A DNA stretch of 41,830 nucleotides, from IMG/VR virus record IMGVR_UViG_3300045988_035073, positions 1-41,830 of that record; one strand, given 5' to 3'. The position numbers were made by a program, and so were the translations under genes. The notes under the pieces are model-generated. The model searched no databases. It was not told the DNA's origin and was given only the letters and a program-made list of their open reading frames with translations. Numbering within the stretch: position 1 is the first letter of the stretch; each line of letters starts with the position of its first letter. The DNA comes from a virus. Positions 2,365 through 32,312 of this stretch are shown here, piece by piece.

Positions 2365-2673
2365 ATGAGCAAGCCAAGATATCCTTGGTGGGGATATGTC
2401 AAAGCGATCATCCGGCAGTATAACGGAGGGAAGTTTGCCCCGGCGTCCGCCTCCCAGATCGCGGAGTATCAGGCGGTCCGGGATGCGGTAGAGCAGACGG
2501 AAGCCATGAATGGCGGCAAGGAGCGTATCTGGCTTGTGCGGATCGTGTTTTGGGAGCGGACGCATACCCTGGAGGGAGCGGCGCTGGAAGTGCATTGCTC
2601 GGAGCGTACCGCCCGCCGGTGGCATACGGATTTTATCCTTTTGGTTGCCAAAAAAAGAGGGCTCTTGGACTAA
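2365..2673 (+). CDS. RinA-family / sigma-region-4-like late transcription activator
   Basis: AGGAGG RBS then ATG 2365; C-terminus ...LEGAALEVHCSERTARRWHTDFILLVAKKRG resembles RinA ...ISDRTAHRIKRKII..LA..LG. Confidence 0.65.
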   Translation: MSKPRYPWWGYVKAIIRQYNGGKFAPASASQIAEYQAVRDAVEQTEAMNGGKERIWLVRIVFWERTHTLEGAALEVHCSERTARRWHTDFILLVAKKRGLLD

Positions 2674-2708
2674 AAGTTGGACTTAAAAAGCCATTGACTT
2701 GTGTTACA

Positions 2709-2753
2709 GTGGGAGATGGGAGGATATTCCTTCCACCTCCCACTTCCCTTTCT
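2709..2753 (+). terminator. Hairpin (14 bp, one mismatch) followed by T/C-rich tract; likely terminator of the 15-2673 operon or 5' hairpin of the noncoding locus
   Basis: gtgggagatgggagg-atatt-ccttccacctcccac then ttccctttct. Confidence 0.45.
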
Positions 2754-3279
2754 GTCGCCCGTGCGGCGGTCCGTCCTCCTTCTGCCGCACGGGAATATGC
2801 CGCACGCACGATGCAGCCCAACGATCAGGGCCGAGAGGCCGCACCTCTCATGCGGTACAGCATGTTTGATGCAGGGTCGCTCCCTTCCGTGCAAGCCGGA
2901 CGGAACACAGACCGATAGTAACTGCGACACGACGGAGAGCAACGCCGGATAGCCCACAATGAGAGGGCGCGCGGAACACGACGCAACGGGACTTCGAGAG
3001 CCTGAGAAATCGTGGCACAAAGTAAGGGGCTGGCCGTCATAGTCCCTACCCGGGAATGGTCGCTGAAAACTACGCACGCGGGGGAGCGAGCTCCCTATCT
3101 CGATGGACGTGTCTGTGGATTGTGTCCGAAGCGCCTGTGTGGCGTCGGACCCGAGGTCGTAAGATAATCTAAGCGGCAAGACTGCCAAAATCAGGCCCCT
3201 CAGCGGGCAGCACGGAGACGTGCGCAAACATGACAGAACTCCCCGCACCTCTCAACGATGTGTCCCAGGGGAGACGTTT

Positions 3280-3351
3280 GCAGACGGAAGCTGGGTGGAT
3301 GCAGCTCCGTGTAGAGTATCGGGTTCGCAGGTTCAAATCCTGCCGTCTGCA
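3280..3351 (+). ncRNA. tRNA-like element (72 nt) with intact acceptor, D and T arms but a degenerate anticodon arm; no encoded CCA
   Basis: Acceptor GCAGACG/CGTCTGC; D stem AGCT(G)/(C)AGCT with GG in the loop; T arm GCAGG-TTCAAAT-CCTGC; discriminator A. The anticodon region ccgtgtagagtatcggg forms only a 3-bp stem. Confidence 0.5.
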
Positions 3352-3407
3352 CAATGCGTATGGTATCACGCCCCGGCAGCTATGATTGCGTAAGTCCGAT
3401 AACGAGC

Positions 3408-3456
3408 CTTCCCTGTGCGCTGTATGTAAGCGGCAGGGCGAAGTATTTATTATTTA
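3408..3456 (+). terminator. Terminator-like hairpin followed by an AT-rich tract
   Basis: cttccctg..cgct-gtatgta-agcg..cagggcgaag (about 12 bp with a bulge) then tatttattattt. Confidence 0.35.
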
Positions 3457-3754
3457 GCTGGACCCGGCTTGTGTAAAAGAAACGGATGCGACCGACATAC
3501 CGGCGCAGGGCTGAAAAGTTCCGTGGTTATCCGGCGCTGCTGTCTTTGCGAGGAGGCTGAGGCGGTAAATGGATGTGGCGTGGTGACGGTAATCGAGAGA
3601 TTAAGCCGTTGTGTAGGCCAGGCCGAACAGAGCGCAGCGCCGGAGACTGTGTAAGTATCACGCCCCTTGCGGGCATAGAGTAGCCCTTCGGGGTGGGTAA
3701 TGTCTGCTATGTAAGGCCAAGGGGTGGGGGCTGGTAGCAAAACAGGAGGATGGC
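3457..3754 (+). promoter_or_regulatory. Structured leader upstream of the late/packaging operon
   Basis: ORF-free; 11-bp perfect long-range helix 3530-3540/3634-3644; UUCG-type hairpin at about 3683-3694; GGAGGA RBS at 3745-3750. Confidence 0.35.
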
Positions 3755-4945
3755 ATGGAAATCACAAAGCGGCGGCTTGCGGATATTGTGCCGTATGCCG
3801 CAAACGCAAAAAAGCATGATAAGCGGCAAATCAACAACGTTGCGGAGAGCATCAAGCAGTACGGCTTTGTGCAGCCGATCGTGATTGACCGTGACGGCGT
3901 GATCGTAATCGGTCACTGCCGCGCTTTGGCGGCGAAGAAGCTGGGCATGGAAGAAGTGCCTTGCGTCTGCGTGGACGATCTGACACCGGAGCAGGTGAAC
4001 GCCCTGCGGCTGGTGGATAACAAGAGCAACGAGAGCGACTGGGACTTTGACCTACTGGCTGATAAGCTGCCCGGTCTCGACCTGTCGGCGTTTGACTTTG
4101 AATGGGGTCTGCGTGACGAACTGAACGATTCCGTTGTCGAGGATGATTATGAACCTGTCATTCCGGCGGAGCCGAAGAGTAAGCTGGGCGATGTGTACCA
4201 GCTTGGAGACCATCGCTTGATGTGCGGAGACAGTACGTCTTTGACTGACGTACAAAGACTTGTAGGGGGGGCACAAATCGATCTTCTTCTCACCGATCCT
4301 CCGTACAATGTGGACTACCAGGGCACCGCCGGTAAAATCAAGAACGATAACATGGAAGATGCAGCATTTAGGCAGTTCCTGACGGATGCCTTCTCCAATG
4401 CGGTGATGGTTATGAAACCCGGCGCTCCGTTTTACATTTGGCATGCAGACAGTGAGGGGTATAACTTCCGTGGTGCGTGCCGAGATGCGATGCTGCGTGT
4501 CCGGCAGTGCCTGATTTGGGTGAAGAATTCTCTCGTAATGGGGAGACAGGATTTCCAGTGGAAACATGAACCTTGCCTGTACGGTGAAAGTGAGATTGAA
4601 GAGGACGATCATGAGCCTTGCCTTTACGGATGGACGGAAGGCAAGAAGCACTACTTCTTCAAGAACCGCAGACAGACAACTGTATTGAATTTCGATAAGC
4701 CTGTCAAATCTGCGGAGCATCCGACCATGAAGCCGATTAAGCTGTTTGATTACCAGATGCAGTGCTCCAGTAAGCCGGGAGAGAATGTCCTCGACCTGTT
4801 TGCTGGCTCCGGTACAACGATCATGGCAGCGGAGCAGAATGGGAGACACGCTTTCTGCATGGAGTTTGACCCGAAGTATGCCGACGTCATTGTTGACCGG
4901 TGGGAGAAGTTCACCGGAAAGAAGGCGGTGCTTCTGCATGACTGA
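3755..4945 (+). CDS. ParB-like nuclease domain fused to N6-adenine/N4-cytosine DNA methyltransferase
   Basis: N-terminal ParB-N pattern (..VQPIVIDRDGVIVIGHCRALAAKKLG); MTase motif IV LLLTDPPYN; AdoMet motif DLFAGSGTT. Confidence 0.9.
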   Translation: MEITKRRLADIVPYAANAKKHDKRQINNVAESIKQYGFVQPIVIDRDGVIVIGHCRALAAKKLGMEEVPCVCVDDLTPEQVNALRLVDNKSNESDWDFDLLADKLPGLDLSAFDFEWGLRDELNDSVVEDDYEPVIPAEPKSKLGDVYQLGDHRLMCGDSTSLTDVQRLVGGAQIDLLLTDPPYNVDYQGTAGKIKNDNMEDAAFRQFLTDAFSNAVMVMKPGAPFYIWHADSEGYNFRGACRDAMLRVRQCLIWVKNSLVMGRQDFQWKHEPCLYGESEIEEDDHEPCLYGWTEGKKHYFFKNRRQTTVLNFDKPVKSAEHPTMKPIKLFDYQMQCSSKPGENVLDLFAGSGTTIMAAEQNGRHAFCMEFDPKYADVIVDRWEKFTGKKAVLLHD

Positions 4946-5183
4946 TGCTCAGGCGACTGCGCGGAGGATGTTGAAGAAAAACCAGCAGCATTTATCCACA
5001 CAGCAGATGAAAACACTGAACGGGCTGATTAAGTCCGGCGATATTACAGGGGCCATGAATGGCCTGCATACATTGGTGGCGAGAAAGCTGACTGCGAGAA
5101 AGGAGGGCGCGTATGGCAAGGCCAAGAAAGGAAATAGACCAGAAGCAGTTCGAGAACCTCTGCGGCCTGCAATGCACGCTTGA
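4938..5183 (+). CDS. Hypothetical small basic protein (81 aa)
   Basis: ATG overlaps the MTase stop; its 3' end overlaps the terS start by 71 nt, so the extent is uncertain. Confidence 0.4.
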   Translation: MTDAQATARRMLKKNQQHLSTQQMKTLNGLIKSGDITGAMNGLHTLVARKLTARKEGAYGKAKKGNRPEAVREPLRPAMHA

Positions 5184-5439
5184 GGAAATCTGCGGTTGGT
5201 TTGGTGTGACTGATAAAACACTGGATAGTTGGTGTAAACGCACCTATCATGCCAGTTTTTCCGAGGTATTTAAGCAAAAGCGCGGAGCGGGGAAAATTTC
5301 ACTGCGTCGGAGCCAGTGGCGATTGGCTGAAAAGAACGCGAATATGGCTATTTGGCTGGGGAAACAGTACCTCGACCAGAAGGATATTGTGGAGCAGAAC
5401 ATCAACACAGAGGGTGTCAAGGTGATAATTGATGTCTGA
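5113..5439 (+). CDS. terS: Terminase small subunit (HTH type)
   Basis: KEIDQKQFENLCGLQCTLEEICGWFGVTDKTLDSWCKR...SLRRSQWRLAEKNANMAIWLGKQYLDQ is a typical TerS pattern; immediately precedes terL. Confidence 0.8.
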   Translation: MARPRKEIDQKQFENLCGLQCTLEEICGWFGVTDKTLDSWCKRTYHASFSEVFKQKRGAGKISLRRSQWRLAEKNANMAIWLGKQYLDQKDIVEQNINTEGVKVIIDV

Positions 5440-6706
5440 CATTCGCCTGTCTGAAAAAATCGGCCCTGCGTTTTATAGCATTGCACATGACATTTTTAGG
5501 CATGGGCATACGCACTACGATTTCAGCGGTGGGCGCGGCTCACTGAAGTCCTCCACGGTGTCTGTACTCGTTCCCCTGCTTCTGATAAACAATCCCGGCA
5601 CGCACGCGCTCGTGCTGCGCAAGGTGGCAAACACAATCCGCGATAGCGTCTATGCCCAGTATATCTGGGCAATCGGTGAACTGGGCATGGCTGCGTACTG
5701 GGAAGCCAAAGTCTCCCCAATGGAGCTGATCTACAAGCCTACCGGGCAGAAGATCATGTTCCGGGGCGCTGACGATCCCATGAAGATCAAGTCTATCAAA
5801 GTCCCGTTTGGCTATATCGCCGTGACGCACTTTGAGGAAAAAGATCAGTTTGCCGGGCGCGCTGAAATCCGAAACATTTTACAGTCGACCATGCGTGGTG
5901 GCTCGGTGTTTTGGAATTTTGAAAGCTATAACCCACCTATTTCACGTGATAACTGGGCAAACAAGGATAGCCTTGAAGATCGCCCGGACCGGCTATGCCA
6001 TAAATCAACGTACTTACAAGCGCCTCCGGAATGGCTGGGGCAGCAGTTTATTGATGAGGCGGAGCACCTAAAAGAGACAGACGAGCGGGCATATCAGCAT
6101 GAATACCTCGGTATCCCGGTCGGTACCGGCGGGAACGTGTTTGAAAACTTGGAGCTGCGAGAGATTACCGATGAAGAAATTTCGCAGTTCGACCGCATTT
6201 ATAACGGCGTTGACTGGGGATATTTTCCCGACCCGTGGGCATTCAATCGTTGCTATTACGACGCTGCGAGACGCACGTTATACATTTTCACGGAAATGAC
6301 CGCAAACAAAAAGCGGAACAAAGAAACGGCGGATATGCTGATTGACTATGGGCTGACCCGCGATGACCTCATCACGGCAGACGGCGCAGAGCCAAAGAGC
6401 GTCGCGGACTATCAAAAATTCGGCTTACGTTGCATTAGCGCAAGAAAAGGGCCGGGAAGCATTGACCGCTCTATGCAGTGGTTGCAAGGGTTATCGAGCA
6501 TCGTAATTGACAAGGTAAAATGCCCCAAAACGGCAGAAGAATTTATTTCCTATGAGTACGAGCGGAACCGCGATGGAGAGATCATCAGCGGCTATCCTGA
6601 CGCAAACAACCACCATATTGATGCATGCCGATATGCGACGGAATCGATATGGAGGATGCCGGGTCAAAAGGGAAAGAGCGATTATACCCCCATTTGGAAC
6701 AGATAG
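5429..6706 (+). CDS. terL: Terminase large subunit (PBSX/Terminase_3-like)
   Basis: Walker A-like GGRGSLKS; size and position; C-terminal nuclease region ...HHIDACRYA. Confidence 0.9.
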   Translation: MMSDIRLSEKIGPAFYSIAHDIFRHGHTHYDFSGGRGSLKSSTVSVLVPLLLINNPGTHALVLRKVANTIRDSVYAQYIWAIGELGMAAYWEAKVSPMELIYKPTGQKIMFRGADDPMKIKSIKVPFGYIAVTHFEEKDQFAGRAEIRNILQSTMRGGSVFWNFESYNPPISRDNWANKDSLEDRPDRLCHKSTYLQAPPEWLGQQFIDEAEHLKETDERAYQHEYLGIPVGTGGNVFENLELREITDEEISQFDRIYNGVDWGYFPDPWAFNRCYYDAARRTLYIFTEMTANKKRNKETADMLIDYGLTRDDLITADGAEPKSVADYQKFGLRCISARKGPGSIDRSMQWLQGLSSIVIDKVKCPKTAEEFISYEYERNRDGEIISGYPDANNHHIDACRYATESIWRMPGQKGKSDYTPIWNR

Positions 6707-21184: not shown

Positions 21185-21201
21185 GGCGGGAAGGTGACAA
21201 T

Positions 21202-21855
21202 ATGGGAAAAACAATTACCCTGACAAACATCCTTGCAAACAGCGGACAAGGAATTTTTGGTGCATTTCTTAATAACTGTACTTGGCAATCCTCTACGATA
21301 ACAGCGGGAGATGGAGCGACAAGAAGCGTAAGAGTAATCCCGTCAGCGGCGGGAGAATGTACCCTGACTACTGATTATCACAATCTGGTGGCATCTCATA
21401 AATACTACCTGAGTCTCAAAATTAAATTTGAATCTCAGGCCAGTGGAACCGTGGATTGGTATTGGCCCATTGCAGAACCGGCAGCAGTTTCTGGTATGAA
21501 AGTTGGCGGAGATGCTGATACGTGGGTCCGTTGTTCTGCTGTGTTTACTCGGACTCAATTTACGGATGGCAATTATCCTTGCCGGTTTGACTACAACAAC
21601 GAGAGTGTCAATGTACCGTTCCGGCTTACCTCTTGTATGCTGCTTGACCTGACTGCTGCTTTTGGGTCGGGCAAGGAACCCAGTAAAGAGTGGATGGATG
21701 AACACCTTACTACATTTTCCGATTCCCCAACGCTTTCCTACTACGAGAACCTTGGCGAGCTGTTCACGGATATCGCAAATGCCCTCCGGACGAAGAGCGG
21801 ACAGACAGAGGAGATTTTCGCCTGTGATTTCCCAGCGAAAATCCGGGCGCTGTAA
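21202..21855 (+). CDS. Putative receptor-binding / carbohydrate-binding fibre tip protein
   Basis: Visibly lower GC than its neighbours; jelly-roll-like beta-rich sequence; ...LLDLTAAFGSGKEPSKEWMD... Confidence 0.5.
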   Translation: MGKTITLTNILANSGQGIFGAFLNNCTWQSSTITAGDGATRSVRVIPSAAGECTLTTDYHNLVASHKYYLSLKIKFESQASGTVDWYWPIAEPAAVSGMKVGGDADTWVRCSAVFTRTQFTDGNYPCRFDYNNESVNVPFRLTSCMLLDLTAAFGSGKEPSKEWMDEHLTTFSDSPTLSYYENLGELFTDIANALRTKSGQTEEIFACDFPAKIRAL

Positions 21856-22107: not shown

Positions 22108-22599
22108 ATGAAAAAAAACATTTTTCTGGATATCAAAACGTGGGTCACAGCGGCCATCGCCGCTTTGACCGCCGTCTGGGGCTGGTTCGGCTGGCTCATC
22201 GTGGCCTGGGTGCTGCTGATGCTGGCGGACTGGCTGATCGGGAGCGCGGCCGCCATGAAGCGGGGCGAGTGGTCCAGCAAGAAGCTCCGGGAGGGGGCGT
22301 GGCACAAGGGCGGCATGATCGTCATTGTGTGCGTGGCCTGCGCGGCGGACTGGCTGCTGGGGTCCATGCTGGGCAATCTCCCCGGCGTGACACTGCCCTT
22401 TGAATATACGGTGCTTCTGGGGCCTCTCGTGGTGGTGTGGTACATTCTGGGCGAGCTGGGGAGCCTGGCGGAGCACGGAGTGAGTATGGGAGCACCGGTC
22501 CCCAAGTGGCTGGTCCGGCTGCTGGCGGCGGGGAAAAAGGCCGTAGATGCCGCCGGAGATAAGATGGCGCCGGAGGACGAGGAGGTCAAAAATGAGTAA
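22108..22599 (+). CDS. Holin (Phage_holin_4_1 / TcdE-like)
   Basis: Multiple TM helices, ...LGELGSLAEHG.. motif, charged C-terminus; alternative GTG start at 22102. Confidence 0.8.
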   Translation: MKKNIFLDIKTWVTAAIAALTAVWGWFGWLIVAWVLLMLADWLIGSAAAMKRGEWSSKKLREGAWHKGGMIVIVCVACAADWLLGSMLGNLPGVTLPFEYTVLLGPLVVVWYILGELGSLAEHGVSMGAPVPKWLVRLLAAGKKAVDAAGDKMAPEDEEVKNE

Positions 22600-23911
22600 G
22601 ATGGTTACGGTGCGTTTTGCCCCGGATGGCCTGCAGAAGATTCAGCTCTATGTGACGAAGAAGACGGAGAAACTGACGGCCAGCCAGGTCCGCAAGCGGA
22701 CAGGGGCCGACGTGGTCATCAACGCCAGCCTCTACGACTCCAACCGCTGGGTCCCCAACTGCGACGTGAAGGCGGACGGGAAGATCCTGAGCGATGACAA
22801 GTACAGCTACCGGGGCCTGGGCTGGAACAGCGGGGAGGGGAAGTTTCGTATCGCCGTCAGCGGCGAGATGGAGAGCTATGACAACTTCATCTCCGGTGTG
22901 CTTCTCCTCTGGCAGGGGAAGCCCTACCCCTACCATGCTGACGCCGCCGTTTCCCGCCGGAGCGGACGGACGGTCCTTCTGGGCCTCACGGATGGGAGCT
23001 ATCTCCTGCGCTGCTTCCCGGACGGGGCGCTGGGGATGACGCCGGGGGAGCTCCAGCGTGCGCTCCTCCGGGAGTTCCCGGCGGCGGACTGGGCCCTGAT
23101 GCTGGACGGCGGCGGCAGCGTGCAGCTCTCTCAGGAGGGGGAGGCGTATCTCTACTCTCCCCGGCGGGTCCACAACTACCTCTGCTTCTGGCGGAAGCGG
23201 GAGGCGGACGGCTGCCCGTATCCGGAGCCCACGGCGCTGGTGCGGCAGGGGAGCTCTGGCAGCGGGGCTCGGTGGGTCCAGTGGCAGCTCCAGCGCCACG
23301 GCGGGGACCTGGCGGTAGACGGCAGCTTTGGGGCAGAGAGTGACCGGACGCTGCGGGCCTTCCAGGAGGCGTATGATCTGGAGGCGGACGGAATCTGCGG
23401 ACCGGCTACGAGAAAGCAGCTGAAAGCGGAGCGGGAGGAGAAGACAGCCCGGGCCGTGCTTTTCGCGGCTGCTAGTCAGGTGGGTGTCACGGAAAGCCCT
23501 GCCGGTAGCAACCGGGTGAAGTACAACACGGCCTACTATGGCCGGGAGGTTTCTGGCAAGGCGTACCCCTGGTGCATGGCCTTCGTCTGGTGGGTCTTCC
23601 GCCAGGCGGGGCTCTCCCTCTACAAAACGGCGTCTTGCAGCGCCCTGGTGGGCCGCTACAAGGCGCAGGCCCCCGGGCAGGTCATCCGGGGAGGATACCG
23701 GCCCGGAGACATCGTATTCTTTGACTTCACGGGCAAACGGACCAAGACAGAGCACGTGGGCATCGTGGAGAGAGTGAGAACAGACGGGACCCTCACCACC
23801 ATCGAGGGCAACACCGGCATGGGCAACGACACCAACGGCGGCGCTGTCATGCGGCGGAAGCGGAAACAGGGGCTCGTCACCTGCGGTGTAAGACCGGGGT
23901 ATCCAGATTAA
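22592..23911 (+). CDS. Endolysin: phosphodiester-glycosidase-like (NAGPA/DUF2233-type) N-domain + PG_binding_1 + CHAP
   Basis: ADVVINASLYD...LMLDGGGSVQL; WVQWQLQRHGGDLAVDGSFG..TLRAFQ; CHAP Cys/His PWCMAFVWW...EHVGIVE. Confidence 0.8.
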   Translation: MSKMVTVRFAPDGLQKIQLYVTKKTEKLTASQVRKRTGADVVINASLYDSNRWVPNCDVKADGKILSDDKYSYRGLGWNSGEGKFRIAVSGEMESYDNFISGVLLLWQGKPYPYHADAAVSRRSGRTVLLGLTDGSYLLRCFPDGALGMTPGELQRALLREFPAADWALMLDGGGSVQLSQEGEAYLYSPRRVHNYLCFWRKREADGCPYPEPTALVRQGSSGSGARWVQWQLQRHGGDLAVDGSFGAESDRTLRAFQEAYDLEADGICGPATRKQLKAEREEKTARAVLFAAASQVGVTESPAGSNRVKYNTAYYGREVSGKAYPWCMAFVWWVFRQAGLSLYKTASCSALVGRYKAQAPGQVIRGGYRPGDIVFFDFTGKRTKTEHVGIVERVRTDGTLTTIEGNTGMGNDTNGGAVMRRKRKQGLVTCGVRPGYPD

Positions 23912-29622: not shown

Positions 29623-30648
29623 CTATTTTTTCGGAGCAAACAACTCCTCAAAATGCCCGTCAATGATTTTATCAAACGCCTTTTCTTTTTCGGCGAGAGT
29701 GTGTTGGTATGTGGTTTTCAGCATGTTATTGGTAGCGTGGCCCATCCGCTTTATGCCGTACTTATCCGGGATACCTTCCGCCAGCATGACGGATGCGTTA
29801 AAGTGCCGCAGATCGTGGAATCGGTAGTGCTTTACTTTTGCCTTCTCGCAGATGCGAACAAAGCCACTGTATAGCGCATGCCCAGAAAGGTTCACAATGT
29901 GTTCGCTTGTCTTGGGTTGTTTCTGGATCAAATCCAAAAGGTAAAGCGGAAGGTGTATCCTTCTGGTGCCGCTATACGTTTTTACTCCCTTTTCAACAGG
30001 CCCGTTTTCCCCGGCCACAATGGCCCTCCGGATTTGCAGATACTCACCATCGATATCATCCCAGCGCAGGCCAATAATCTCGGATGCCCGGAGGCCAAGC
30101 CAAATGGCAATCATAATTGGCAGCTCGTATTTTGTACCTTTGCATGCGTTGGCAATGGCTACAGCGTCGGCCTCAGACGGTATCTCGATCTCCGTTTTTA
30201 CCTTTTGTGGCATGGTTGTGCGTAAGGCCATTTCCGGCTTATATTCCGCAAGGATTGGGCTCAAAAATCCGTGTGCGTTTGCGATTGTCTTTGGCGTTTT
30301 TCCTTCCCTCGATAGCCTGTTTACCCAGCGTTGCACTCGCTCTTGTGTGAGATCGGCTAAAACGATATTCTCAATATCCTTCATCAGATTTTTCCGGATT
30401 CGTTTATACCCGGCAATGGTGGACGGGGAAAGCACCTCGCTTCTGGTTTCGATGTATCGGTCGGCAGCTTCCCCAACTGTAAGTCTTCTTACAGGCTTTT
30501 GCGCCTCCACCATTTTTGTTTTGATGCCGGAGGCCCAGAATCGGGCTTCTTCCGCCGTATCAAAAGTGTTCCCAACTCGTTTCCTGTCAACCATGATCTG
30601 GATGCGGTATTTCCCTGATGGTAACTTTATTGGCTCTGGAATTTTCAC
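29623..30648 (-). CDS. int: Tyrosine integrase
   Basis: Arm-binding N-terminus KLPSGKYRIQIMV..., catalytic region HDLRHFNASVMLAEG...GHATNNMLKTTYQH; GTG start after AGGAGG. Confidence 0.9.
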   Translation of the reverse strand: MKIPEPIKLPSGKYRIQIMVDRKRVGNTFDTAEEARFWASGIKTKMVEAQKPVRRLTVGEAADRYIETRSEVLSPSTIAGYKRIRKNLMKDIENIVLADLTQERVQRWVNRLSREGKTPKTIANAHGFLSPILAEYKPEMALRTTMPQKVKTEIEIPSEADAVAIANACKGTKYELPIMIAIWLGLRASEIIGLRWDDIDGEYLQIRRAIVAGENGPVEKGVKTYSGTRRIHLPLYLLDLIQKQPKTSEHIVNLSGHALYSGFVRICEKAKVKHYRFHDLRHFNASVMLAEGIPDKYGIKRMGHATNNMLKTTYQHTLAEKEKAFDKIIDGHFEELFAPKK

Positions 30649-31605: not shown

Positions 31606-31917
31606 ATGTTTATTACAAGAAAAGAGTTAGAAGACTTGCAGGAAGAAAACCGAAAACTCAAAGAACAGCTTTCGGAAGAACAAGAGCGTACCCGCCGGTC
31701 TGCCGTCATTGACAATGCCGCCCTTCCGCAGTGCAAAAGCATTGCTTGTTCCGGCTGCAAATACGTGGTTGCTCGCTATACCAATTGGGGCGGATGGTAC
31801 ATTCTTGGCTGTGGAAAGGATAACCCTTGCAAAGACTATGAGCCAACAGATATTACCCCCGAAAAGGCTGAAGCTATTCGAGAAGCGCTGCACATCCAGT
31901 GGCAGTACAACAACTAA
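31606..31917 (+). CDS. Hypothetical Cys-rich protein with N-terminal coiled coil
   Basis: Isolated + strand gene inside the lysogeny block. Confidence 0.6.
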   Translation: MFITRKELEDLQEENRKLKEQLSEEQERTRRSAVIDNAALPQCKSIACSGCKYVVARYTNWGGWYILGCGKDNPCKDYEPTDITPEKAEAIREALHIQWQYNN

Positions 31918-32312
31918 CCGGATAGCAAGCAATTCAATAGAAACCCGCAAATAGCGCCAGTTATCGCTACAAAACAGTCTCTTGCCGTAATAGAGCGTTC
32001 TTTTGCGGTCTCTTTCTTCGCATAAGCAAGAAAGTTATACCCTCTTTGACGGAGAATAATCCCACGCTTCTCATTTTTCACAAGCACATGGACAAAATTA
32101 TGATGTAAAAGGACAGCAACATCATTCTCGTTTTCCGGCGTTACAAGTACCACGTCTTTTTGCGCCTGCTTCAAAAGCTTCATTTGCGCCTTTGTAAGAG
32201 CAATGTATGGGAAATCGTATTTTTTGTTCTCTAGATCGGCTTCCCATTTTTGCCGCTCAATTTCCGTCAAATGCTTGTCGTTTGGGTTTGTGGGAATAAA
32301 CACGCTACTCAT
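31914..32312 (-). CDS. Hypothetical protein with C-terminal TM helix
   Basis: Lower-GC gene downstream of and coupled to the repressor gene. Confidence 0.6.
   Translation of the reverse strand: MSSVFIPTNPNDKHLTEIERQKWEADLENKKYDFPYIALTKAQMKLLKQAQKDVVLVTPENENDVAVLLHHNFVHVLVKNEKRGIILRQRGYNFLAYAKKETAKERSITARDCFVAITGAICGFLLNCLLSG

Follow-up and report, generated by a model that had tools for sequence, protein, structure and literature searches.

The GOLLD RNA is modelled as an RNA of ~800 nucleotides (nt) with a conserved 3' half and multistem junctions. In phage T4, the species 1 and 2 RNAs (rnaC/rnaD) are stable RNAs which lie in a tRNA cluster and are released by tRNA-processing enzymes. Lambdoid Stx phages reportedly have tRNA genes that lie downstream of Q/pR' and ahead of the late genes, as in the account of phage 933W that Plunkett et al. 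gave in 1999. Three tRNAs are located around stx2a (PMC7946995). GOLLD and ROOL are structured non-coding RNAs of prophages, often found near tRNAs and possibly co-transcribed; the ROOL model comprises ~580 nt with six multistem junctions plus three pseudoknots (PMC5737381). The skipping-rope and DUF3800-VIII motifs are structured small RNAs, often followed by terminators (PMC5737381), and were originally associated with genes encoding DUF3800 (PMC5737381, PMC7736814), an RNase H2-like retron effector domain (PMC7736814). Theta ribozymes, which resemble the ribozyme of hepatitis delta virus (HDV), are linked to tRNA genes in gut Caudoviricetes and have been proposed to process tRNA ends (PMC10879173). 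In addition, IMG/VR has been mined for a bulk catalogue of short candidate structured RNAs, which has more than 8,000 entries (PMC10690425). The role of phage tRNA clusters and of orphan RNAs such as GOLLD, ROOL and skipping-rope is a long-standing question. Here, we analyse a leader region at positions 2674-3754 of a viral genome of 41,830 nt (IMG/VR record IMGVR_UViG_3300045988_035073, positions 1 to 41,830; hereafter the window). The region is bounded by the open reading frame (ORF) of a 102-aa regulator (2365-2673) and a methyltransferase ORF (3755-4945). A first-pass annotation made from the sequence alone had proposed it as a candidate large structured RNA, which may be a divergent member of the GOLLD/ROOL class or a new class.

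Like GOLLD and ROOL, which occur in Firmicutes prophages and often beside tRNA genes, the locus represents non-coding structured RNA, here with a tRNA-like element. However, GOLLD and ROOL are each one RNA of 580-800 nt, whereas the locus strings together independent modules that measure 70-260 nt apiece, and shows no evident sign of the multi-junction architecture or of the homo-oligomer-forming fold. Our preferred reading, to which we assign a probability of roughly 0.6, is that the region comprises the promoter and the long untranslated leader of the late operon (packaging and structural genes) of a gut Clostridia phage, and doubles as a slot for exchangeable RNA cassettes. Judged by comparison of related sequences, it is a mosaic of independent, swappable RNA modules and not one giant RNA. 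The strand of all RNA elements is that of the flanking genes. In the window, the region is composed as follows:

2673-2692 and 2702-2710, plus strand: box AAAGTTGGACTTAAAAAGCC and extended -10-like TGtTACAGT, a putative regulator-dependent late promoter (consensus match only)
2708-2756, plus strand: leader hairpin 1 (arms 2708-2724/2728-2744), then the pyrimidine tract TTCCCTTTCTGTC; terminator-like and promoter-proximal
2757-2794, plus strand: leader hairpin 2, 12 bp, loop GUCCGUCCUCCUUC; the stem covaries and a near-invariant AUAUGCC lies 3' of it
2795-2860, plus strand: 5' domain of the leader core motif; P1 (GCCGCA/UGCGG(U)), P1b and P1c (GAGAGG/CCUCUC) form a three-way junction
2861-3232, plus strand: lineage-specific insert of 372 nt in the linker between the two core domains
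3233-3279, plus strand: 3' domain of the leader core motif; P2, a hairpin (CUCCCC/GGGGAG) whose apical CACCUCUCAACGAUGUG(U/G)CCCAG is near-invariant
3280-3352, plus strand: tRNA-like element of 73 nt; acceptor, D and T arms intact, 3' end ACAA and not ACCA
3353-3404, plus strand: linker common to only ~5 loci; the upstream copy of GTATCACGCCCC, a direct repeat of 12 nt, lies here
3405-3665, plus strand: M8, a structured RNA of ~260 nt with H1, H2, an invariant block and a multi-stem domain
3680-3742, plus strand: piece 3, a pre-gene hairpin with G-rich loop AAGGGGYGGGGG, ending at the ribosome-binding site (RBS) AGGAGG (3744-3749); the ATG is at 3755

The comparison set comprised ~270 related loci. 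Seven IMG/VR phages with regulators 95-99% identical to that of the window were compared with it for breakpoints. In these phages, whole segments have been exchanged relative to the window, and breakpoints recur at about 2800, 2860, 3017, 3182-3191, 3232, 3286, 3352, 3390 and 3686. Within the exchanged segments lie good tRNAs, scoring up to 67 bits, as well as the DUF3800-VIII motif of Rfam. An exact-pattern scan with positions 2826-2855 of the window retrieved at least 119 viral (IMG/VR) contigs. The only pieces common to nearly all of ~130 loci are 2794-2860, 3233-3286 and 3680-3742, the first two being contiguous in most loci. Measured from the first piece to the third, the distance is anywhere between 261 and 951 nt; that of the window, at 948 nt, is among the longest. 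M8 is present in 8/98 loci anchored on the leader motif, and the leader motif in 11/88 loci anchored on M8. The two mostly occur apart, and the modules are independent of each other.

The leader core motif spans ~115 nt in total and consists of a three-way junction (P1, P1a, P1b, P1c) and hairpin P2. It lies between leader hairpin 2 and the tRNA slot. In an alignment of 20 sequences (A3), which includes the divergent L203, L260 and L157 from a second scan, compensatory changes are found in 10/31 pairs, and pairing holds in 98.5% of cells. Values as high as those observed were not obtained in any of 500 column shuffles, and structures slid by 1-3 columns pair at only 36-49%. Four of the six P2 pairs covary, and the apical 23 nt are nearly invariant. 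In pairs of the window's own numbering, compensatory changes among relatives affect 2834-2839/2845-2850 and 3239-3244/3267-3272. The 3' domain is found in all 98 core-anchored loci, and the motif as such is 88-95% identical between phages whose regulators share only 55-60% identity. No Rfam family matches it. Pairing of the P1c strand GAGAGG with a second CCUCUC copy in the P2 loop was considered and rejected, since P1c covaries locally and the loop copy is fixed.

The 372-nt insert is present in only 3/98 core-bearing loci; in the other 95 the core domains are contiguous. With the insert removed, the window aligns over all 31 motif pairs. No helix is broken by the insert, and its linker also varies by 4 nt in other members of the motif. 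The insert ends CATGTTTG...CAAACATG are inverted (8 nt) and flanked by the direct repeat ACAG (2857-2868, 3225-3236). The insert is composite, with breakpoints at 3017 and 3182/3191. Its fold is not more stable than expected by chance (z = -1.22). Within it, compensatory changes are confined to one hairpin, 3126-3148, and in L003 and L008 the closing helix has imperfections. It is found solely in the clade of the window, in 5 IMG/VR and 8 metagenome contigs, all with the same context. The insert resembles a helix-closed expansion or a small mobile element; the mobile element found no support, since viral and metagenome scans show the same context only and the closing helix is not always kept. 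The ~530-nt body that had been proposed upstream of the tRNA-like element is therefore not one unit. It divides into the small conserved motif of ~115 nt and a young lineage-specific insertion.

M8 is the best-supported larger RNA of the region. In the window it lies 56 nt downstream of the tRNA-like element and is made up of H1 (3411-3438) followed by an A/U-rich tract, H2, the invariant block of ~45 nt (3480-3526), which contains CCGGCGCAGGGCUGAAAAGUUCCGUGG, and a multi-stem domain. The latter is closed by the long-range helix 3530-3540/3634-3644, which is kept through four entirely different sequences. Compensatory changes among relatives are found in H1 as well as in this closing helix. 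An alignment of 16 sequences representing four sequence variants (A4) yields 54 consensus pairs, of which 15 are compensatory, with 98.8% of cells paired; 0/500 shuffles reach the observed values and slid structures pair at 32-48%. The window carries the exact block 3500-3526 and all 54 consensus pairs. This 27-mer occurs in at least 119 IMG/VR contigs, many of them from phages of 60-120 kb. In contigs with the 27-mer, M8 is always found on the tRNA strand and between tRNAs: the upstream tRNA starts ~220-245 nt before the M8 motif and the next tRNA, often tRNA-Gly(tcc), at +179. With same-strand tRNAs flanking it at those distances, M8 fills the inter-tRNA spacer. No Rfam family matches M8. 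The perfect 12-nt repeat GTATCACGCCCC at 3363-3374 and 3655-3666 brackets M8; by our estimate, chance would yield ~0.04 repeats of this kind in 1.2 kb, and the repeat could be the footprint of cassette insertion via short-homology recombination.

Regarding known RNAs at such positions, M8 shares with the T4 species 1 and 2 RNAs its location between same-strand phage tRNA genes, and by analogy may be released by tRNA enzymes. However, there is no sequence relation; with its ~260 nt, M8 exceeds these RNAs in length, its core of 45 nt is invariant, and it resides in gut Clostridia-type phages. Theta ribozymes lie within ~5 nt of a tRNA end, whereas M8 starts ~55 nt downstream and is ~260 nt long. 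No HDV-family ribozyme was matched by Rfam in the window or its relatives; a dedicated descriptor search was not made.

The tRNA-like element scores 29.5 bits with the Rfam tRNA model (RF00005, 3280-3351) against a gathering cut-off of 29, and ARAGORN calls it 'tRNA-Ser(aga)'. The first-pass annotation had described it as tRNA-like, and this designation holds, if marginally. It has acceptor, D and T arms of 7, 4 and 5 bp, respectively, and the T-loop UUCAAAU. The anticodon arm is non-decoding, having a 3-bp stem (CCG/CGG) and a 10-nt loop, and the long variable arm expected of tRNA-Ser is missing. Elements of this kind form a small family with a 3-4 bp 'anticodon' stem, a hypervariable loop of 10-14 nt and a constant D arm. 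Within the family, the acceptor stems covary (GCAGACG/CGUCUGC vs GCGGGCG/CGCCUGC) and so do the T stems (GCAGG/CCUGC vs GCAAG/CUUGC). The parts kept by the element are those needed by RNase P, the acceptor and T stems. Because these stems covary while only the anticodon loop varies freely, the element agrees with a maintained tRNA mimic, e.g. a processing signal, and agrees neither with simple decay nor with a decoding tRNA. It recalls the tRNA-like domains of tmRNA and YrlA, which likewise have a tRNA fold without a decoding anticodon arm; the likeness is one of analogy, as the window element has only 73 nt and stands alone. ARAGORN called no tmRNA, and neither tmRNA nor bacterial Y RNA was matched with Rfam, assuming that the library covers both.

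In relatives, +110 from the core start, the position of the tRNA-like element, is exactly where a tRNA begins (Gln, Thr, Trp, Gly or Ile). The same slot is occupied by skipping-rope RNA (RF02924, 45-51 bits) in six loci (L019, L042, L061, L070, L076, L112) and by DUF3800-VIII RNA (RF03075, 46-48 bits) in two (L008, L009). DUF3800 genes were not seen beside these RNAs in the sister phages, and the window itself has no covariance-model match to skipping-rope or DUF3800-VIII. An attP/tRNA integration site at the slot was rejected, since the integrase is encoded at 29.6 kb and the slot holds whole tRNAs.

Further tRNA-related elements were observed in these loci. Several relatives and larger phages have tRNA-like genes with an abnormal anticodon-loop size in the same arrays, reported by ARAGORN as 'tRNA-???' (L007 4435-4509, L163, L190, L198, L200). 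G3.U70 and A73 form the alanine identity set used by tmRNA; the elements of L224, L239 and L201, a subgroup of the tRNA-like family, combine G3.U70 and A73 with a non-decoding anticodon arm. In L027 and similar loci, the slot holds an element of ~115 nt that ends in ACCA and whose acceptor stem (GCAGAUG/CAUCUGC) is perfect; a T arm is present, and ~75 nt of other sequence replaces the D and anticodon arms; tRNA tools do not call it.

The 5' part of the leader has a constant order, even though the regulators are only 48-62% identical: regulator stop codon, box, TGnTAnnnT, U/C-tailed hairpin, hairpin 2, often AUAUGC, and the first cassette. The conserved box (AAAAGTTGGC...) and TGnTAnnnT keep a constant spacing. 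Variants of the -10-like element are TGaTAGCAT (L012), TGcTATAAT (L138) and TGaTACTAT (L141). In about half of the motif-bearing loci, the palindrome CTCACTTATAAGTGAG replaces the AAAAGTTGGCC box; the -10 position and the downstream leader are unchanged. Such palindrome loci (L001, L020, L030 and others of the pattern scan) have no detectable regulator homologue, and the palindrome is located ~130-110 nt upstream of the motif. Since they keep the -10 position and the leader without that homologue, a second, unrelated regulator is suggested to drive the same leader. The sequence of hairpin 1 differs among relatives; a hairpin with a U/C-rich tail is always there, and in L141 it is a canonical terminator, ACCTGCGGGG..CCCCGCAGGT CACATTTTTT. 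From the sequence of these elements, we infer a regulator-controlled late promoter with a promoter-proximal terminator.

Hairpin 2 is kept despite fully different stem sequences in L010, L015 and L001, and its helix 2758-2767/2784-2793 shows compensatory changes among relatives. Its loop GUCCGUCCUCCUUC, which resembles an anti-Shine-Dalgarno sequence and is CCUCC-rich in relatives, is common to the window and L015, whose stem differs. The stretch CCGUCCUCCU of the loop (2771-2780) is complementary at 9/10 positions to the RBS and start codon at 3744-3753, 963 nt downstream. Pairing of the P2 loop or of the CCUCC loop of hairpin 2 with piece 3 or the RBS was not retained; complementarity is present, and there is no covariation to test it. 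In L141, the first cassette, a tRNA-Trp, directly follows hairpin 2, and the leader motif is missing. At the other end of the leader, piece 3 is found in 97/98 core-anchored loci and in 167/269 compared loci. Its stem GCUA/UAGC is changed to GCCG/CGGC in L108.

The first-pass annotation had described the region as packed with stable helices, and all ten helices it listed are present, six of them with compensatory changes in relatives. With respect to folding energy, only some segments stand out, and large parts are no better than chance. The z-score is -6.98 for 2706-2796, -3.52 for 3526-3650, -2.68 for the spliced leader motif and -2.67 for the tRNA-like element (3280-3352). It is -1.22 for 2858-3236, -0.54 for 3352-3754, -0.38 for 3405-3530 and +0.82 for 3676-3745. 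Structural support thus comes from covariation, not from stability.

Several other explanations of the region have to be weighed against this reading. One large ornate RNA of ~1 kb, either a divergent GOLLD/ROOL-like RNA or a new giant class, would have the modules as its domains and the variable parts as expansion segments. It would agree with the joint occurrence of the leader motif and piece 3, which bracket the variable middle in 97/98 loci, and with an insert that sits in a linker and leaves every helix intact. It would also agree with the frequent location of GOLLD and ROOL near tRNAs and in prophages (PMC5737381) and with the distant complementary stretches 2935-2954/3525-3544 and 2771-2780/3744-3753. 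However, using cmscan with Rfam 15 on both strands, neither GOLLD (RF01998) nor ROOL (RF03087) was matched in the whole window at the gathering threshold or in 2500-3900 at E<=10, nor did any other large RNA of Rfam match there at E<=10; 42 related loci gave no match of this kind either. Permissive Rfam matches in the window and the 42 loci are only to tRNA, skipping-rope, DUF3800-VIII and GP20-b; weak matches to miRNA, abiF and ar14 were discarded as chance likeness to simple hairpins. Moreover, M8 occurs without the leader motif in 77/88 loci and the motif without M8 in 90/98, the distant relative L141 has a tRNA right after hairpin 2 and no leader motif, and the span of 261-951 nt arises by wholesale cassette replacement and not by gradual expansion. 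Leader motif and M8 covary in the homologous loci and the hairpins are conserved in structure; no inter-module pairing showed covariation. We consider a giant RNA quite unlikely. The assignment to the GOLLD/ROOL class is unsupported, with no match at E<=10 and modules that occur independently; of the known RNAs that had been suspected, cmscan returned neither giant RNA, and Rfam and ARAGORN returned the marginal tRNA. What did prove correct is the more general description: in a temperate Clostridia phage (integrase at 29623-30648), conserved structured RNA and a tRNA-like element are physically linked and lie upstream of the packaging genes (TerS at 5113). If the region were instead a decaying tRNA gene cluster, it would be mostly debris (tRNA pseudogenes, spacers) with no function beyond the late promoter. 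Good tRNAs of 44-67 bits at the same place in relatives point in this direction, as do truncated tRNA halves (the 5' half of a tRNA-Gln in L097, a 3' end in L009/L121), the just 29.5 bits and lost CCA of the window element, and the unremarkable folding z-scores of 2858-3236 and 3352-3754. Yet the leader motif covaries and is far better conserved than the regulators, M8 has its invariant 45-nt block and 15 compensatory pairs, and no other tRNA remnants were detected in the window with Rfam or ARAGORN. In the tRNA-like elements the acceptor and T stems covary and only the anticodon arm varies, which is the opposite of random decay. Decay of this kind is improbable in our view.

The conserved pieces might also act as DNA, as pac/cos sites, as binding sites of terminase or regulator, or as recombination sites for cassette exchange. 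The locus is directly upstream of the terminase genes, its layout of conserved flanks with a variable middle is reminiscent of a hot spot of recombination, the cassette borders are marked by short direct repeats (ACAG at the insert, GTATCACGCCCC at M8), and the box beside the regulator gene is most simply a DNA-binding site. On the other hand, the compensatory changes keep Watson-Crick and G-U pairs on one strand, which indicates RNA and not DNA. Piece 3 is kept upstream of first genes and TerS types of at least three unrelated kinds, which makes a TerS-specific pac site unlikely, the integrase and hence attP is 26 kb away, and contig ends near the locus are scattered without a common position. 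A pac/cos site was rejected because of piece 3 and the scattered contig ends, and we judge a role of the conserved pieces as DNA sites to be unlikely altogether. Coding, finally, is suggested by two ORFs, one of 192 aa on the minus strand (2670-3248) and one of 122 aa (2550-2918), and stop codons are recoded in some gut phages (PMC10879173); the region could thus be protein-coding under an alternative genetic code or hold small unannotated genes. The region was aligned pairwise with 12 relatives of 71-99% identity, and each codon position takes an even share of the substitutions, e.g. 36/33/35 in one case and 20/18/15 of 53 in another. Indels are mostly of 1, 2 or 4 nt, even between relatives 94-98% identical. 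Since substitutions are not 3-periodic and indels shift the frame, coding is practically excluded under any genetic code. The Pfam search of mechanical ORFs in 2674-3754 gave no match for any of them, and the M8 block is invariant at all positions, would-be wobble sites included. The statement of the first-pass annotation that there is no credible ORF is confirmed; codon-like substitution or a conserved ORF in homologues, also under an alternative code, was looked for and not seen. Protein-coding content is extremely improbable.

In the preferred reading of a late-operon leader, transcription would start at the regulator-dependent extended -10 promoter directly after the regulator gene. The transcript would pass the promoter-proximal terminator-like hairpin and the second conserved hairpin, run through the leader motif (with the 372-nt insert in the window), the tRNA-like element, M8 and the pre-RBS hairpin, and then enter the first late gene. 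The leader is probably cut apart at tRNA or tRNA-like elements: RNase P and RNase Z would cut there and free the neighbouring RNAs and the mRNA as separate molecules. Read-through into the late genes probably needs antitermination, because terminator-like hairpins separate the promoter from these genes. The layout is like that of the lambda Q/pR'/tR'/6S RNA region, with a regulator gene directly upstream of the putative late promoter, a hairpin or terminator near the start and, as in Stx phages such as 933W, tRNA genes along with accessory cargo placed ahead of the late genes. However, the regulator of the locus is an unrelated 102-aa helix-turn-helix (HTH) protein with phrog_36 as best match, the host is one of the Clostridia, and the lambda late leader has no counterpart of the conserved structured RNAs found here. 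No similarity of the regulator to Q proteins was detectable, so antitermination is an analogy of layout only. Other points also weigh against a late leader of this kind. The promoter is only a consensus match, and the -10 of the window (TACAGT) is weak. Hairpin 1 could merely end the regulator's own transcript, and a terminator scan did not call it in the window, where the tail is mixed U/C; a stem mismatch is the probable reason. The cassettes may be passengers and not act as RNA. The almost constant company of leader motif and piece 3 (97/98 loci) could mean that they are two halves of one RNA, which would be nearer to the initial idea of a large RNA.

A more far-reaching, tentative proposal, which we regard as possible though doubtful, is that M8 and the leader motif represent two previously unclassified RNA classes (their novelty being judged against Rfam 15). 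Under this proposal, M8 would be trans-acting, the leader motif and the pre-RBS hairpin would control late read-through or translation, and the leader would be an 'RNA accessory island'. If true, M8 would be a protein-binding or catalytic RNA released by tRNA-processing enzymes. The swapped tRNAs, tRNA mimics and orphan RNAs could counter tRNA- or RNA-directed defences of the host, an attractive hypothesis since the slot holds tRNAs, mimics and DUF3800-associated RNAs. With respect to the role of phage tRNA clusters and orphan RNAs, the comparison places such RNAs in one defined exchangeable slot of the late leader, framed by conserved structures, across a large group of phages from human and animal guts. 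A single segment from promoter to RBS would provide an experimental handle on tRNAs, mimics, skipping-rope, DUF3800-VIII and M8. Leader motif and M8 are well-supported candidate RNA families with more than 100 instances each, and their inclusion in databases of RNA families would improve the annotation of gut viromes.

Concerning the genomic setting, the phage is temperate, with a tyrosine integrase at 29623-30648 and an endolysin at 22547-23911. The regulator (plus strand) matches phrog_36 'transcriptional regulator' (E=8e-5) as an HTH protein; no Pfam family matched it, and some of its homologues (n=115) show a faint HTH_28 signal. In every case the regulator is the last gene before the leader. 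In L010, L012, L015, L138 and L141, the regulator gene is followed by a gap of 270-610 nt and then by the packaging genes. The homologues derive from Oscillospiraceae and Clostridiales metagenome-assembled genomes (MAGs). A scan of genome contigs gave one match, a MAG contig of Candidatus Ventrousia excrementavium (Clostridia), which may be the phage itself. The first gene 3' of the leader, ORF 3755-4945, encodes a ParB_N and N6_N4 DNA methyltransferase. Further downstream are the packaging genes TerS (5113), TerL (5429, Terminase_3) and portal (6742). The methyltransferase gene is found in only some relatives (e.g. L004, L046), and in others piece 3 directly precedes terS; the gene behaves like an inserted accessory gene between leader and terS. 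The rest of the genome had been described as almost gap-free, which does not hold: a crude ORF tiling shows gaps of 556 nt (21185-21740) and 489 nt (31761-32249). A GP20-b cis-regulatory RNA (RF03003, 57 bits) was found at 5431-5490 of the related phage L130 and not in the window. Upstream of the regulator, a 131-aa ORF (1959-2354) with a Cys-rich N terminus stays beside the regulator in close relatives. Its C-terminal HTH shows a weak resemblance to the HTHs of small terminases (PF07141, E=0.008; phrog_4494).

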